Assembly (NCBI GenBank): GCA_025056555.1
Contig: JANWVZ010000003.1
Location: 1 to 50,556 of the forward strand
Reading direction: 5' to 3'
DNA: 50,556 bases
DNA from: Gemmatales bacterium
Lineage (GTDB): Bacteria > Planctomycetota > Planctomycetia > Gemmatales > HRBIN36
Shown here: positions 31,217-38,090 of the stretch, piece after piece
How positions within the stretch are numbered: the first letter of the stretch is position 1
Layout of the letters: each line of letters starts with the position of its first letter
Notes under the pieces: model-generated
Seen by the model: the letters and a program-made list of their open reading frames with translations, nothing else
Database searches by the model: none
What the model was told of the DNA's origin: nothing
Program-made: the position numbers and the translations under genes

Positions 31217-32398
31217 TCAGGGTTCGGCTGGCCTGACAGCAGTGATGCGTTTGACCAGCATGGTGGCATAACAACCCCGCGGCAGAACACATTGCAGATA
31301 CAACTTGCGCTTGCCGCTCTGGAGTTCGTCCTGTTCGAGCTGGTAGGCCAAATCCTGCGGGAAAAACACTGCGGCGCGTTCTCCGCGCGAGAAAAACGGC
31401 TTGCGAAAATGGCGGAGGCGCAATTGGCGTAGCGTGATTTTTTCGGCCGCCAGAACATCTTCGAGAATCGGCCGCAGCGGATGATCTTCCACGAGTTTAA
31501 GCCGCGCGCTCAGGTAGGGTATCTGCAACGACTTCAAGGCGTGCCGTTGTTCAGGATTCAGTTGCCGATAAAACCACACCGGCCCCGTCTTTAATTCCAC
31601 CTCCCAGAGTTGTTGCGGTCGGCAATGTAATTCGAGCCAACGGCTCAGACAGCGGTTCCACAGGTAGCTTTGGTAGGCCGACAAATACAACGTTTTCAAT
31701 TCCATGTGCAGGCAGGCAAAGGCGCCGCGAAAATCCTGAGGATGGTCGCACAGATAACTGATGACGCTACGCACGTTGCCGCGGGGTAACTGTTCTTTGA
31801 GCTGCGACCAGTTCCCCCATTGCTTGCGGAGCAATTCCTTGAGTTTTCGGATTGAGCTGCGGTCGTGCTCGTGCGGTGCGCTGAGGGCCAGTTGAAGGGC
31901 CGTTTCGTAATCTTCGTGGATGAGATACCAAGCAATGAAACGCCGCTCCGGCGTGACCGAACCAAACCGCTGATCGTCGAAGTAATTAGGCACCCCATCC
32001 TGCTGCAGTTGCTCCAGACTTTCAAGGGCCAGCCGTGCTTCCGCGGCAGAGAGATCGCGAATTGTGATCGCGAACCGATTGCCGGTCACCAGTTTCGGAC
32101 CATACGGAACCCCGATTTGCCCCAAATAATGCAGATGCAGGTGCGTCTGTTTCAGGCCCCGGCGGGGACCGTGGAGAATACTGAGATACTGCGTGGTGCT
32201 GGCATGACGATCTTTGAGCCCCCCGTAGCCGATACGCCAGCGCGGGATTTTCCATTTGCGGCAAATGGCGTCGAGCGCCTCGGGAGTACCGAGCGACTCC
32301 TTCTCCAGGCGATAAAAGGCATAATTGCCTTCGCTGCCGGGCTGGACAGCGGTAAGTTCTTCGACGCGGAAATCCTGCGGTAGTTGTTTGAGTTTCAT
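31217..32398 (-). CDS. truD: tRNA pseudouridine(13) synthase
   Basis: P.DFRVEE, GLKDRHASTTQY.S, GNRF.I.IR, PNYFDDQRFG, SAYQSYLWN, LPRGCYAT. Confidence 0.95.
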   Translation of the reverse strand: MKLKQLPQDFRVEELTAVQPGSEGNYAFYRLEKESLGTPEALDAICRKWKIPRWRIGYGGLKDRHASTTQYLSILHGPRRGLKQTHLHLHYLGQIGVPYGPKLVTGNRFAITIRDLSAAEARLALESLEQLQQDGVPNYFDDQRFGSVTPERRFIAWYLIHEDYETALQLALSAPHEHDRSSIRKLKELLRKQWGNWSQLKEQLPRGNVRSVISYLCDHPQDFRGAFACLHMELKTLYLSAYQSYLWNRCLSRWLELHCRPQQLWEVELKTGPVWFYRQLNPEQRHALKSLQIPYLSARLKLVEDHPLRPILEDVLAAEKITLRQLRLRHFRKPFFSRGERAAVFFPQDLAYQLEQDELQSGKRKLYLQCVLPRGCYATMLVKRITAVRPAEP

Positions 32399-32534
32399 GG
32401 TGGAGAGTCAGGCAACGACTGCCCAGCTTCGGTACGTCCGATTGCCCATCATGGTCGCGGATACCGTTACCCTGGAGCGTCGGGTTGTGCTACTTGGCAA
32501 GCCCAATCAACCGAAGTCCTCCCGGAACTAAAGT

Positions 32535-32603
32535 AAAAAGGCCGAGGGAGCGGTCTGAGACCGGTCGCCCAGGCAGCCCCAGAGGTAACCGCATCCCTCG
32601 GCC
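32535..32603 (-). ncRNA. candidate structured small RNA or leader hairpin ending in a U-tract
   Basis: GGCCGAGGGAUGCGGUUACCUCUGGGGCUGCCUGGGCGACCGGUCUCAGACCGCUCCCUCGGCCUUUUU: 10-bp and 5-bp outer stems, a 9-bp inner stem with 3 G-U pairs, then U5. Confidence 0.55.
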
Positions 32604-32609
32604 ACTGGT

Positions 32610-32637
32610 ATTATAGACCCACGCCCAGTGGGGGCAA
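32610..32637 (-). promoter_or_regulatory. sigma70-type promoter
   Basis: TTGCCC (32637-32632), 16-nt spacer, TATAAT (32615-32610); predicted +1 near 32603, pointing toward truD. Confidence 0.6.
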
Positions 32638-32917
32638 GCATCGCCACCGCGAATTTTCCGAGTTCCATGACTCATCAGTCCGAGCTCAGTCCGCGAGAAG
32701 TCTTGCGCTCTGCGGGGTGGGCGTCCTGGCTTGGGTTCGGTTCCCGCAGGTCGAGTCTCGCGTGGCCTGCGCTGCTGAATCTGAAGCGCGCCATAGAACT
32801 CGTTTGGGTGCGGCTGCAACTTGTCCCCCAGGGTTCGTTGGGCCTGAGAATTATAATAGTGTGTCCCTGGCCCGGCGTTAGCGCCCCGAATAAGCCCCAC
32901 ACCGGCAGAGGTGCATC

Positions 32918-33295
32918 ATGGCTATTCCACAGCAGCCGGTACCGCGGAGGAACGTGATTTTCGTCATCCATCCGTATAAGTATCACGGCACCTGGGTGTT
33001 CGACGACCCGGACAGGGGCCTCAGCAAAGAGCCCTTTGTCGCAGGGGCCGATGTGGTCCTCGACCGCATTACCGCCCATATCCCGGAGGCTGAGCATGGC
33101 GTCACGATATTGTTTTCCGATCAGCCGTTTCCAGGGTATGAGCATGAGTTTGTGTGGATGCGCGACGAATTCGGGGGCGCCTGGTATACCGACCCGCGCA
33201 CTGGTCAGGAAGGCTGGCTCTGTTCGGCATTACTGCGTTACTTTCCCGAACCGCCGCCTCGGCTATACGTCCAAGTCCAGCCCAGAAAGAGTTAG
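32918..33295 (+). CDS. DUF6717-like conserved hypothetical protein
   Basis: I.PYKY.G.WVFDD...GL..EPFV.GAD, LFS..PFPG, G.WY, EGWLC.AL..YF...P; GAGGTG RBS. Confidence 0.75.
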   Translation: MAIPQQPVPRRNVIFVIHPYKYHGTWVFDDPDRGLSKEPFVAGADVVLDRITAHIPEAEHGVTILFSDQPFPGYEHEFVWMRDEFGGAWYTDPRTGQEGWLCSALLRYFPEPPPRLYVQVQPRKS

Positions 33296-33439: not shown

Positions 33440-34633
33440 CTAGGGCGCCTGAACTTTCCGGATTTTGCGTTCGGCTTCGCGTTTGAGTTGTTGGTCGCGA
33501 TGGCTGGGAGAAGCGAGCTCAATGGCTTTTTTCCAGGCCGCCACCGCCTGTTCCCGTTCTCCCAAGGCCAGGTGCACATCGCCGAGGTGATCGTAGAGTT
33601 CCGCATGCTGCCCATCTGGTAAGGCCACCGCCTGCAACAATAGTTTCTTCGCCTCCGCATACTGTTTTTTCTTGTAATAGACCCAGGCGAGGCTGTCCAG
33701 ATAAGCCGCGTTTTCAGGTTCTTTCTCCAGGGCCTTGCGGATCATTTTCTCGGCCTGGTCGAGGTTGCGATCATGATCGACCCAAATGTAACCGAGGTCG
33801 TTGTTATACGTCGGATTGTCCGGCTCTTTCTTGAGCAGGACTTGCAGGTATTCGGTGGCTTTATCCACATCGTTCATTTCCGCATACAGGCTGCCCAGCT
33901 GATAGCGAATGAAATCAGCAACTTTTTCGTTATTGGCTTGGGCCAGGGCCTTCTGGTAGAGATCGGCGGCTTTGCCGTACTGGCCGGTGAAACGAAGCAG
34001 CCAGGCCTCCCGCTGGAGGATGAGGGGGTGCTCATCGAGCCCGCGAACCGCCTTGAACTTGGCGAGGATATTGTTGGCATCGTCGAGACGGTTCAGGTAG
34101 GCATAGACGATGATCATCTGCAGGGTGACGAAGATTTTGCGGCTTTCCATTTCTGGGGTGCTCGCTTCCATTTCGAGGATTTCCCGCCCTAAGCGCTCGG
34201 CCTGGGCGAACTGGCGCGTGCGCATGGCCAGGCTCATCATCAGTTCCCGCAGCTCAAACTCGCGCATGGTACTCTTGATCAACCGCGCACGCTCCATCAG
34301 GAAGCGATAGAGTACTTCGGCACTTTGGAAGTCGTGGATTTCGTCGCACAGGTGCAGCACAATATAGGCGGCGTTGTAACCCAGGGGGCTGTCCTTCTGC
34401 TGGGCCAGTGCCACAGCTGCCTGCACCAGTTCCTTCAGTTGCTGGCGGGTGCGTTCGCGACTGAGCCGCTCAATGACAGCTTGAATCTGGTCGGTGCCGG
34501 TGATTTCGTCGAGTTTCAGCACCTCCAGTTCCCGATCGTTCCGCGGCGCGAGGTGGGCAACCGCCGCGGTAGCCCCCCCATGCAGCAACCCCACCAGGTA
34601 CAGGGCAACCGTCACCATACCAGATCGGTACAT
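33440..34633 (-). CDS. exported TPR-repeat protein
   Basis: Signal-like N-terminus; NNDLGYIW, EPENAAYLDSLAWVYYK, YDHLGDV. GGAGG before ATG 34633; the ORF is open to GTG 34645. Confidence 0.88.
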   Translation of the reverse strand: MYRSGMVTVALYLVGLLHGGATAAVAHLAPRNDRELEVLKLDEITGTDQIQAVIERLSRERTRQQLKELVQAAVALAQQKDSPLGYNAAYIVLHLCDEIHDFQSAEVLYRFLMERARLIKSTMREFELRELMMSLAMRTRQFAQAERLGREILEMEASTPEMESRKIFVTLQMIIVYAYLNRLDDANNILAKFKAVRGLDEHPLILQREAWLLRFTGQYGKAADLYQKALAQANNEKVADFIRYQLGSLYAEMNDVDKATEYLQVLLKKEPDNPTYNNDLGYIWVDHDRNLDQAEKMIRKALEKEPENAAYLDSLAWVYYKKKQYAEAKKLLLQAVALPDGQHAELYDHLGDVHLALGEREQAVAAWKKAIELASPSHRDQQLKREAERKIRKVQAP

Positions 34634-34892
34634 GATGGCCTCCACTTCCTTCAGGACAAAGGGTTTGCCCTCATTATAAGCTGGGTAGACTTTTCCTTGC
34701 GCGGACGATGCGGACCAGCCGGGCGCACTCGGCTTGAGACGCTCGTCGCTGGCCAGGACCTCCGTCTCCTCTGACTATGCTAATCAATACCAAGTCTTTT
34801 GGCCAAGAGCAATTAGCCTGAACGGTGCTGCGGACCTTGCTCCCAACGGTTGACGCGCGATAGCGTCCAACCTCTGGAACCGACCTGTCGCT

Positions 34893-37800
34893 TCACGGCG
34901 CCGATTCTTCCCGACTTGGTGTGGCATCTTTACGGTTTCGCTCGCGCACGAAACGGTTGCCCTGAAGCACGTAGCCCGCATCCCTCAATTGTTTCTGCGT
35001 CCAAAATAACCCGGATCCCGTAGACATGTTAAACAGGCCCTGACGAAATCGCACGCCCCATCGGTTCTCGCCGGTGGCTTCGTTGACCAGCACAGGGACA
35101 CGGCGGTAAATGGCTTTGGTCAGTTCAGCATCCTGTCGGGTGCGGAAAATCGGGCACGTCCTGGTGTTGGGGTTGATCAAGGTGAAATCGTGGGCCGTAA
35201 GCGCAAAGCGTCGCCCTTCATCGCGAAGGTCGCGTGCGCGGCTCAGGAAAAATGCCAGCACAGGTCCCTCGGCGTCGGATTCGTGCTCGGCGGTTTTGTC
35301 TGCGGTGTTCGGCGGTTTCCCATCAGATCGGCGCAGCGTCATCAGGCAGAACTTGTAGCTTCGGTGGACACCGAGGAAGACGCCTTCTTTATTCTCAAAA
35401 TCGAACAAACTGACGAGTTGGCCAGTTTGCACCAGATGATTGAAAAACTCCCGGTTGTTGACATCGGTAGCGATGCCGCTAGGAATGACCACACCGGCCC
35501 GTCCCCCCGGAGCGAGGAGACGTAAGAAGAGTTCTGCGAAGACTGAATAGTAATTGATACGCCCTGATGAAGTCATGGCGAAGCGTCGAGAGCTGCGCAG
35601 ATACTTGCGTAAGGCATCAGCATCATGAAGTGCCTGCTGATAATCTCGCCACAGGGCTAAGTTTCTTTTAGGCAAATCTGAAATTAGTCGTTCACGTATT
35701 GCCTTATTTGCTGCGGTGGCAATTTCGGCATCGCGTGTTGCGAAGAAGACTTGTTCCTCAAGCTGTATTAGTTCCCAAGGGGGATTGCATAAGACGACGT
35801 CGAAGCCGCCTTGGAGAAAGACGTCGGGAAACTCCAGAGGCCAATGGAAAAACCGCAGGCGCTGGGCTAATTGGTCGGCACTGGCCAGAGGAGCGCCCAG
35901 AGCAGGACCCTGAGAGCGGAATTGACACAAGGTATCGGTGGTGATGACCGCGGCTCGGTCTAAAGTCTGGTCGCGGGCCTGAAAGAAAGCGGCCACATAG
36001 AGATCGCACAGCTGGCGCTGAGGTCTGGCATGCTTGTGCCAATCCTCGAAACGCTGCTTCTTATCGCGCACCACCTGCGGCGAGTCGTCGGCCAGGCGCG
36101 CCAGGGAGGAAAGTTCCTGCGCCAAGGGGGCTAACTCCTGGGAGGTAAATAGCAGGCGCTTCTGGCCTCGGACCCGGTCCGCCTGTTCCTGGCGATTGGC
36201 CTTCCTGATGGCGCGGGCTAATGAGGGATCATCGCCACTGACCGGGTCGAAAGCCGTGTTAGGGATACCGTCGTTCAGAACGGTCCAATCCAGAACTCCG
36301 ACGAGCGAATCGCCACAGCGGATGCGATGGTCGAGGAAGGTGAGGGGTTTGTGCGGAACGTGGCTTTCCAACCAGAGGGCCAGTTTACACAACTGGACAG
36401 CCAGAGGGTTCTTATCCACCCCGAAAATGCAGTGGGCAATGACGTCGCGAATAGCGACGCGCTGAGCTTCGGGAGCGGGCTCTTCGTCGCCAGTACGAAT
36501 CCGCGCCAGTTCTTTGCCCAGCCGTCGTGCCGCCGCCAGCAGGAAATGTCCCGAGCCGCAGGCGGGGTCAATCACCTTGATCTCCAGAAGTGCTTTTTCC
36601 TTGTCGGAAGGATTGGCCAGAGACTGACAGCGTTGATAGAGGATCGGCTCCAGGGCGCTGCGCACCAGCTCCTGCACCAGTTCCGGCGGGGTGTAATACG
36701 ACCCCGTGGACTTGCGTTGCGTGCCCCGCTGAAAGGTAAACTCCCAGCTTCCGGCCTCGGTTCGGAACACCGGGTGATTATCGAGCAGACTTTCGTATAC
36801 CGAGCCGAGTTCCTCGACATCCAGAGCGGCATAATTGACGCGACGAATACTGTGCCCGGCACTTTCGTCGTGGTAATAAATCAGGTGCCGCACCGCCTGT
36901 AGCAAATCGCGATTAGCCAGGCAACACTCATCGAACACAATCGGGTCAAAGAGTTCCCCATCCAGGACGGGCAATCCCAGCAGCGAAGCCAGGGGTTGCC
37001 CTTGCAATTCGGCACACGGTGTACCATCCGCCAGCAGTTTCCAGAGCAGACACAGTCCCCACCAGAGATCCCCGTCGTCGGTGTAAGCGCTTCGCCGGTC
37101 GACAAGCCGGCGGAAACGGCTCACGCCGTAGTGTTCGCGGTACAAACGATGGGCACCGAGCAAGCCCCGGTCTTCGCACACCAAAAGGAACAGCAGCCGA
37201 TAAACCAGGCAGAGCAAATCGCGATAAAACTCCAAAGCCGACAACGCTTCGCCGGAAGCGTTGGCACACTGGCGGGGATCAATCCGACGACGCAGTTCGC
37301 TATTGGCGGGATGCCGGAGAAAACCATTGGCCAGGGTCTGCAGGCATTCTTCAACGCCTTCCCGCAACCGCTCGCGGACACGACTTCCCTGCTCAACCGA
37401 GTTGCGATAGTAGACTTCCAAGGGGCAGGCGTCAATCTGGGCCTCCGCCACGGGCAAGCGGGTGCGGTGCACCAGCCGGTAGAAGACGTTGAAATCCAGA
37501 AAGAGCTGTTCCTCGAAGATGCGAGCCAGGTCGAACTCGATGTAGGCCAGGCGCCGAATGTACGAGCAATCGCGGAGAACTCGCAATACCAGGCCGTTAG
37601 TTACCAGGCCCCAGAGGTGCTCGGTGCGATTGAGAAACTGCTGGAGCAAGGAATGGGGAGCCAGGCGTGGCCGACCGCTGGGCGGAACCTTTCCCAGTTC
37701 CTGACGCGCGCCGACGATGTGCACGGGGGGCGCCCACGCCTCTGCCCCGGCCCGATGGGAAATGGGATAGATCTCCTGCTCCACCTGGTAGGGACGGCTG

Positions 37801-38090
37801 TTGTAATGCAAGTCGTAGCCCAGCATGCTGAACAGGGGGACTACCCAGGTATCGCGCGTGACGGAAGTAGCGCTGTCCTGAGGCGGCAGCCGGGCCAGAC
37901 GATTCTGAAACACTCCCCATTGCGCCCGTGCATCTGCGAAAATGGCTGCGATTTCCTCCGTGAGCGGGCGCTTCTCCGACAGGCCGAAATCTCGGGCCCG
38001 CTGATAGTCCAGTTCGCCTTGGAGCAGGCGTTCCAGCAGATCGGCACTGAAAAATCCGCCCTCAATGCGCACGGCGGGAAAAAGACTCAT
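34893..38090 (-). CDS. Eco57I/DrmMI-like N6-adenine DNA methyltransferase, probably C-terminally truncated
   Basis: EELGSVYESLL, RKSTGSYYTP, DPACGSGHFL (motif I), GVDKNP, CGDSL, FFHWPLEFP, NPPW (motif IV), INPNTRTCPIFR. Confidence 0.88.
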   Translation of the reverse strand: MSLFPAVRIEGGFFSADLLERLLQGELDYQRARDFGLSEKRPLTEEIAAIFADARAQWGVFQNRLARLPPQDSATSVTRDTWVVPLFSMLGYDLHYNSRPYQVEQEIYPISHRAGAEAWAPPVHIVGARQELGKVPPSGRPRLAPHSLLQQFLNRTEHLWGLVTNGLVLRVLRDCSYIRRLAYIEFDLARIFEEQLFLDFNVFYRLVHRTRLPVAEAQIDACPLEVYYRNSVEQGSRVRERLREGVEECLQTLANGFLRHPANSELRRRIDPRQCANASGEALSALEFYRDLLCLVYRLLFLLVCEDRGLLGAHRLYREHYGVSRFRRLVDRRSAYTDDGDLWWGLCLLWKLLADGTPCAELQGQPLASLLGLPVLDGELFDPIVFDECCLANRDLLQAVRHLIYYHDESAGHSIRRVNYAALDVEELGSVYESLLDNHPVFRTEAGSWEFTFQRGTQRKSTGSYYTPPELVQELVRSALEPILYQRCQSLANPSDKEKALLEIKVIDPACGSGHFLLAAARRLGKELARIRTGDEEPAPEAQRVAIRDVIAHCIFGVDKNPLAVQLCKLALWLESHVPHKPLTFLDHRIRCGDSLVGVLDWTVLNDGIPNTAFDPVSGDDPSLARAIRKANRQEQADRVRGQKRLLFTSQELAPLAQELSSLARLADDSPQVVRDKKQRFEDWHKHARPQRQLCDLYVAAFFQARDQTLDRAAVITTDTLCQFRSQGPALGAPLASADQLAQRLRFFHWPLEFPDVFLQGGFDVVLCNPPWELIQLEEQVFFATRDAEIATAANKAIRERLISDLPKRNLALWRDYQQALHDADALRKYLRSSRRFAMTSSGRINYYSVFAELFLRLLAPGGRAGVVIPSGIATDVNNREFFNHLVQTGQLVSLFDFENKEGVFLGVHRSYKFCLMTLRRSDGKPPNTADKTAEHESDAEGPVLAFFLSRARDLRDEGRRFALTAHDFTLINPNTRTCPIFRTRQDAELTKAIYRRVPVLVNEATGENRWGVRFRQGLFNMSTGSGLFWTQKQLRDAGYVLQGNRFVRERNRKDATPSREESAP

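Follow-up and report, generated by a model that had tools for sequence, protein, structure and literature searches.

Among described systems, those closest to the locus analysed here include the Qrr RNAs of Vibrio, multi-copy, sigma-54-dependent regulatory small RNAs with differently controlled paralogues, and the thrS operator, which mimics the anticodon arm of tRNA-Thr. To our knowledge, regulatory RNA is a nearly blank field in Planctomycetota. Published accounts describe rnTrpL of Sinorhizobium meliloti as a small RNA derived from an attenuator (PMC6614838) and archaeal L7Ae as having a k-turn in its own 5' UTR (PMC5539422).

Here we analyse a minus-strand hairpin that precedes truD in a 50,556-nt stretch of DNA from a Gemmatales bacterium (contig JANWVZ010000003.1 of assembly GCA_025056555.1, hereafter the window). 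On comparative sequence grounds the hairpin represents the minus-strand RNA of a candidate, previously undescribed small-RNA family specific to Gemmatales. We place at roughly 55% the probability of our preferred reading, namely that the locus is a small-RNA gene of this family whose hairpin would double as an attenuator of truD and whose RNA would act via its near-invariant loop; the reading draws on sequence features, conservation, covariation, strand, synteny and stand-alone copies, all of them observed directly.

The hairpin locus upstream of truD

The transcription unit and its surroundings comprise the following features.

32632 to 32637, minus strand: -35 hexamer TTGCCC, from sequence reading and a promoter consensus scan; TTGCC is common to all four species of the genus
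32610 to 32615, minus strand: -10 hexamer TATAAT, separated from the -35 by a 16-nt spacer
32603, minus strand: predicted transcription start, G32603, the first base of the hairpin, placed by promoter geometry
32540 to 32603, minus strand: 64-nt hairpin RNA body, delimited by fold, covariance-model match and covariation
32554 to 32587, minus strand: 34-nt core, identical in four of four species of the genus in alignments in which the flanks and basal stem vary
32561 to 32576, minus strand: apical element CUGCCUGGGCGACCGG, comprising the top of the upper stem and a 9-10-nt loop
32535 to 32539, minus strand: U-tract UUUUU, predicted 3' end of the small RNA, from sequence reading
32399 to 32534, minus strand: 136-nt spacer before truD, which read-through transcripts would span, unconserved within the genus
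31217 to 32398, minus strand: truD, an archaeal/Pus7-like paralogue of 393 aa (Pfam TruD, 1.2e-68), with its ATG at 32398
32918 to 33295, plus strand: divergent neighbour DUF6717 (Pfam DUF6717, 5.8e-16), outside the unit and marking its upstream boundary

An earlier note on this DNA had placed +1 of a TTGCCC-N16-TATAAT promoter at the first G of a 64-nt fold, and both a reading of the minus strand and the consensus scan return the same arrangement, with G32603 as the seventh base past the -10. The site agrees with the consensus at 10 of 12 positions and is the sole sigma-70-like site that the scan finds between 31000 and 34000; since shuffles of that interval yield 1.0 +/- 0.9 such sites, the promoter match alone proves little. 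The promoter spacer (32616-32631, minus strand) also holds CUGGGCG, the same heptamer as in the hairpin loop; in the spacer it is not conserved in the three congeners and is thus probably a coincidence.

The end-to-end fold that the note had described is likewise borne out: the hairpin has a minimum free energy (MFE) of -42.4 kcal/mol, as against -27.0 +/- 2.9 kcal/mol in 200 dinucleotide shuffles (z -5.25), none of which folds as well. Predicted pairs join GGCCGAGGGA with UCCCUCGGCC and GCGG with CCGC, followed by a 9-bp stem that includes three G-U pairs. These upper-stem G-U pairs exist on the minus strand only, as had been claimed, which accounts for the weaker fold of the complementary strand (-36.4 kcal/mol, z -4.55). 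The five U at 32539-32535 follow the hairpin as read earlier, and the distance from there to truD, previously given as about 137 nt, measures 136 nt.

By sequence, the locus has the makings of an intrinsic terminator, with a stable GC-rich stem-loop followed at once by a U-tract, although the window's U-tract is only 5 U long. A generic terminator scan of the region did not list the 64-nt hairpin, which is longer and more interrupted than the template of that scan. The order promoter, hairpin, truD on one strand of the window is that of an attenuator, and the consensus scan found no second promoter-like site in the 136-nt spacer. Neither an antiterminator nor an aptamer-like pocket was found: the spacer is unconserved and the MFE and centroid structures of the hairpin are identical. 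Moreover, with the predicted +1 at the first hairpin base, no upstream RNA could compete with the hairpin.

Other identities were considered for the element. A role as terminator of a neighbouring gene was rejected, since the upstream neighbour DUF6717, which is missing from the hairpin loci of relatives, is divergent on the plus strand, and some 800 nt separate the hairpin from the end of the minus-strand gene that comes next on that side. A small ORF that runs through the hairpin (32528-32668, minus strand) was rejected because family members carry 1-2-nt indels and change in a compensatory way. Hammerhead and k-turn readings of its GAUGA/CUGA motifs were set aside as well, the partner motifs not being in the places that the consensus of each requires. 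SRP RNA is found elsewhere, with RF00169 matching another contig of the assembly (C353, 49.9 bits, above the cut-off) and not the hairpin site, and no tRNA or tmRNA lies within the window. A search of the whole window with Rfam 15 gave no match at gathering score; with E up to 10, the one match in the interval 32300-32900 was to an lncRNA model that has no structure (12.5 bits, gathering score 45), and a search of 10 diverse family members gave only an unrelated, weak tRNA-Sec match elsewhere in one locus, in keeping with the earlier note, in which the element was not recognised as any known RNA family. No description of the hairpin RNA or of a truD leader was found in the main texts of the open-access papers searched; the candidate-motif lists of large comparative studies stand mostly in supplements.

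The note had also allowed for a multi-copy REP-like repeat. A BLAST search of the own genome, a 3.8-Mb, 87%-complete assembly, returned only the element itself (E 1e-52; next best 16 nt, E 0.37), and the covariance models find one match there; being single copy in its own genome, the hairpin is no REP-like repeat. Further upstream in the window, a TPR protein is encoded at 33440-34645 (minus strand), and a 1065-aa ORF at 34893-38090 (minus strand) carries Eco57I, N6_Mtase and MmeI_Mtase domains and is likely a type IIG/IIL restriction-modification enzyme.

Distribution and covariation of the family

A BLASTN search gave matches to the element in three of the three remaining species of the genus and none in 57 additional relatives. 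In all three congeners truD lies downstream on the same strand, the flanks are unalignable and the changes in the basal stem are compensatory, save that in one species three pairs are replaced by a GGA/GAA internal loop. The hairpins of all four species fold at -40 to -42 kcal/mol. Each is preceded by TTGCC-N17-TATAAT (TATTAT in one species), which ends 6 nt before the hairpin, and each keeps a T-rich tail.

A first covariance model built from these four sequences matched 8 of 15 genomes, the own genome included, with weaker matches in three more genera of the family; the matches in these three further genera agree with those of the genus in shape and apical sequence and come with promoters of their own. 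A second model matched 73 of 151 Gemmatales genomes, spread over 43 of 61 genera, which are lower bounds because the search was run with Infernal's stricter filters; under the same filters 78 of the 151 gave no match. By family, and excluding the own genome, the matches fall in 13 of 14 genomes of one (f1) and 59 of 136 of the second (f2). In a class-wide sample, a third model of 31 sequences matched 18 of 35 Gemmatales (own genome excluded) and 1 of 115 Planctomycetia of other orders, and in a phylum-wide sample it matched none of 150 other genomes. The sole match outside Gemmatales (L055, in genome G246) is without the loop motif and sits among direct repeats at regular spacing, much like those of a CRISPR array; to judge by these features, it is a repeat-like false positive. 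The window hairpin itself scored 98.3, 86.1 and 72.2 bits in three model searches.

Some genomes hold several copies, with 2-6 matches per genome. In one complete genome (G019) the loop string of the genus occurs six times exactly against three model matches under strict filters, so that copy number may exceed this tally. Copies can also stand in tandem, about 90-185 nt apart, as in L034 (1411-1482 and 1501-1569), on contig C287 of G143 (12266 and 12451) and on contig C6 of G142 (20570 and 20660); at L034 both lie directly upstream of truD.

The conservation and covariation that had been proposed as a check are both present. Already in an 8-sequence alignment 11 of 25 pairs change on both sides, and in the 31-sequence alignment (30 distinct) compensatory changes occur in 19 of 24 pairs. 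In the latter, 92.3% of cells are paired as against 78.8% in shuffles, with 0 of 500 shuffles reaching any of five measures, in alignments that were fitted to the covariance model and so favour structure, although even in the raw sequences both stems, basal and upper, stand out clearly. When the 3' partner is slid by 1-3 columns, pairing is at most 54%.

The family consensus begins with a basal stem, G-R-Y-C-G-A-G-A-G-A / U-C-U-C-U-C-G-R-Y-C, followed by a variable middle and by an upper stem that ends R-C-U-G / C-R-G-Y and carries the loop A-N-U-G-G-G-C-G-A; in the window's genus a C replaces the first A and one extra C follows GAC. The apical element CUG-NN-UGGGCGAC is near-invariant in both the 31-sequence and a 20-sequence alignment, and its family consensus written out is CUG-A-N-UGGGCGAC-RG.

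Transcription signals, truD linkage and the apical loop

Across the family, 26 of 49 loci have a sigma-70-like promoter whose -10 stops 6-8 nt short of the first hairpin base. At six more the -10 ends 31-40 nt upstream, where an extra small 5' hairpin and a GAUGA-like stretch precede the main hairpin, and at one the only promoter match lies 65 nt upstream; at the remaining 16 no promoter passed the threshold, several of them showing near-consensus hexamers by eye. At least 5 T occur within 8 nt past the stem in 47 of 49 loci, with a run of at least 4 in 42. The conserved unit is, as predicted from these signals, promoter plus hairpin plus U-tract. Many truD leaders of Gemmataceae seem to be transcribed from a start 30-40 nt further upstream and to carry an extra small hairpin and, after it, a YUGAUGR stretch, the last bases of which lengthen the basal stem of the main hairpin; such leaders, with the extra hairpin about 45 nt upstream of the main one, include L024, L027, L030, L033, L035, L036, L038, L039, L042 and L045. 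Two unlinked paralogues (L049 and L063) have TGGCAC-N5-GTGCA in place of sigma-70 hexamers, a sequence that we take to resemble the sigma-54 promoter consensus and that hints at differential control.

The earlier note had offered two interpretations, a stand-alone RNA or a leader that gates truD, and comparative data support each, the former by copies unlinked to truD and the latter by truD within 9-187 nt of the hairpin in 21 of 30 loci. In these 21 of the 30 best-scoring Gemmatales loci truD lies directly downstream on the same strand, the distance being counted from the end of the hairpin model to the start codon. In nine loci it is 31 nt or less, which leaves no room for a separate promoter, so that truD must there be transcribed through the hairpin. 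At locus L017 no U-run follows the hairpin and truD starts 19 nt later, making it a pure 5' UTR hairpin at that locus. Since the linked arrangement occurs in both Gemmatales families, it is probably ancestral. The class search gave a second set of 20 loci, most of them in a single genus whose genomes measure 8-10 Mb and hold 2-3 matches each; in this set truD is adjacent in 2 and unlinked in 18, so that over both sets the hairpin lies between a promoter and truD in 23 of 50 loci and away from truD in 27.

The unlinked copies are hairpins of about 62 nt with strong promoters and U-tracts, mostly multi-copy, and adjoin genes that have no relation to one another (amine oxidase, SDR, MotA/ExbB, PALP, SUFU, epimerase, luciferase-like and SET). 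They have what is expected of a trans-acting small RNA, namely a promoter and terminator of their own and no tie to one downstream gene. Conversely, in five genomes with unlinked RNA truD is present and no hairpin was found upstream of it (best 14 bits, E 0.07, with filters off), and three genera keep the RNA elsewhere while their truD is without it. The RNA is thus not tied to truD, nor is truD tied to the RNA.

The near-invariant loop was compared with possible pairing partners. Of 15 loci of the leader variant with the extra 5' hairpin, which the window is without, seven have in the loop of that hairpin a stretch of at least 4 nt (GCCC, CGCC, GCCCA or CCACU) that is the Watson-Crick complement of part of the main loop. 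After two near-identical loci are merged the count is 6 of 14, against 1.6 expected with the main loop shuffled and 2.3 with the 5' loops shuffled, and is reached by 3 and 9 of 2000 shuffles, respectively; because the loci are related, this complementarity is suggestive and no proof. It suggests that the UGGGCG loop may be a pairing surface. Between the loop and the truD leader or the first 60 nt of coding sequence no consistent complementarity was found, with z below -3 in 1 of 23 loci, and a short-pattern scan for the loop motif in four genomes gave counts similar to those of reversed-pattern controls. A further complement of the loop's GGGCGAC occurs in tRNA genes of the own genome: GUCGCCC stands at the T-stem/acceptor junction of tRNA-Asp and of both tRNA-Pro genes, a region that is double-stranded in the folded tRNA.

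TruD, rival readings and comparison with known systems

Under the preferred reading, sigma-70 RNA polymerase would start at G32603 and transcribe the 64-nt hairpin, and most transcripts would end at the U-tract (32539-32535), yielding an RNA of about 69 nt that is essentially one long terminator-type hairpin. A read-through fraction would carry truD, such that a single promoter with a leaky terminator gives much small RNA and little truD mRNA. The released RNA would act through its apical loop CUG-NN-UGGGCGAC, most likely by loop-to-loop or loop-to-strand pairing with GCCC(A)-type partners. Outside this explanation, the conserved adjacency to truD could mean a direct link between the RNA and TruD.

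The own genome encodes two TruD paralogues. The window's TruD has as its best solved relative the archaeal 1z2z (2.3e-35) and lies near yeast and human Pus7, E. coli TruD being distant (2.8e-9); the second, on contig C88 (L074, 988-2148, minus strand), is of the canonical bacterial type (1sb7, 1.2e-41). The catalytic motif GLKDRHA, with its Asp, is retained in each, and a check of five other Gemmatales genomes found both paralogues in every one. The Pus7-like enzyme is encoded by 102 of 151 Planctomycetia, among them 35 of 35 Gemmatales; as judged from the model searches, the distribution of the RNA is much narrower. In 19 regions upstream of Pus7-like truD from other orders, whose genomes are model-negative, neither a tRNA nor a common hairpin was found.

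TruD acts on the tRNA D-arm, and the D-loop consensus is a loop of 7-11 nt with a first A, GG in mid-loop and a last A. The family apex, G-[A N U G G G C G A]-C on a 4-bp stem, has the outline of a D-arm, a likeness that rests on about four low-information positions; the tRNA-Ala D-arm of the own genome, GCUC-AACUGGGA-GAGC, may serve for comparison. In one genome (G006, locus L085) a tRNA-Gln(CUG) gene with UGUAA at positions 11-15, and hence U at position 13, ends 2 nt before the truD start, in the slot held elsewhere by the hairpin. The congener G010 (L107) has no tRNA before truD, which makes this case an anecdote, and a tRNA gene as the usual upstream neighbour of truD was rejected, since it is seen in this one genome and in none of 20 further upstream regions. 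As given in a 2025 study, the recognition sequence of Thermus TruD is UNUAR and that of Pus7 is UGUAR (PMC12084886). By that consensus, UNUAR occurs nowhere in the window RNA and in 7 of 50 family members at scattered positions, and the hairpin is unlikely to be a TruD substrate.

These observations bear on several rival readings. We consider it unlikely, at odds of about one in six for any direct TruD-RNA interaction, whether as decoy or operator, that the hairpin is a TruD-binding autoregulatory operator, in which a Pus7-like TruD would read the D-arm-like apical stem-loop (4-bp stem, 9-nt loop, first A, mid-loop GG, last A), binding would set termination or translation, and the unlinked copies would serve as sponges. 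Adjacency of the RNA and truD is kept across two families despite TruD proteins that outside the genus are only 38-52% identical and despite changing other neighbours, and an invariant loop sequence is what a protein site would be expected to show; the apex further resembles D-arms of the own genome, and the tRNA-Gln gene in the slot before truD would suit the idea. Yet the conserved part of the RNA lacks UNUAR/UGUAR, three genera have the RNA elsewhere and a truD without the hairpin, the TruD paralogue extends through Planctomycetia while the RNA is found in Gemmatales only, and the tRNA-Gln case is a single genome whose congener does not share it. A shade less likely is the more specific version, in which the hairpin would be a D-arm-like but non-modifiable decoy bound by the Pus7-type enzyme, read-through or translation of truD would be set by free TruD, and the unlinked, multi-copy and partly sigma-54-driven paralogues would be sponges.

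We find it more doubtful still that the element acts purely in cis, as a leaky, constitutive terminator and a stabilising hairpin at the 5' terminus that together hold truD expression low, while the released RNA has no function. Such a role would suit the 23 loci with the hairpin between promoter and truD, and L017 in particular, but a plain terminator or stabiliser has no need of an invariant apical sequence of 13-16 nt, and the 27 loci away from truD, with their own promoters and unrelated neighbours, as well as the several copies in some genomes, speak against it. That there is no RNA gene at all, the hairpin being a DNA-level palindrome (a repeat, recombination or protein-binding site) or a product of chance, is very improbable. 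The complementary strand does fold well too, but the own genome holds one copy of the element, G-U pairs persist and G-U/G-C/A-U switches occur on one strand only, the strand on which promoters and U-tracts are conserved, and in a strand test at one locus the covariance model scored 56 bits forward and 25 bits in reverse.

The preferred reading, of a small-RNA gene whose hairpin would double as the truD attenuator, gives the locus interest in several respects. The family is cleanly supported by covariation, compact in architecture, order-wide and near-invariant in its loop, and is ready for curation as a new RNA family. Its position in the truD leader together with free-standing paralogues would make leader and small RNA the same molecule, and it offers a testable entry to the control of RNA-modification enzymes in bacteria. 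A direct TruD-RNA interaction, if true, would be the most interesting outcome: if TruD binds the hairpin, this would be a new class of enzyme-RNA feedback, and if the decoy reading holds, the first autoregulatory operator described for a pseudouridine synthase, with sponges that tune TruD on tRNA or mRNA.

In comparison with known systems, the hairpin family resembles rnTrpL in that an RNA released by termination in a 5' leader would be a small RNA, one promoter giving both a short RNA and a read-through mRNA; unlike rnTrpL, it has neither leader peptide nor alternative antiterminator, starts at the first base of the terminator hairpin and has unlinked, multi-copy members. With substrate-mimic operators such as those of thrS and L7Ae, it shares the placing of a conserved stem-loop in a leader whose gene encodes an RNA-binding enzyme; the family's own apical loop has, on few low-information positions, the outline of a D-arm, the arm on which TruD acts, but the hairpin is without UNUAR and persists away from truD, as truD persists without the hairpin. 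Like Qrr, the family has several paralogues per genome with an identical loop (2-6 matches), two of them with a sigma-54-like promoter sequence, whereas there is no sequence or structural homology and the hairpin RNA is a single hairpin of about 62-72 nt. Finally, a GC-rich stem followed by a U-tract is shared with ordinary intrinsic terminators, from which the element differs in its roughly 25 bp over 64 nt, three times the usual length, in having a promoter and not a gene directly before it, and in a loop that is conserved across the order.
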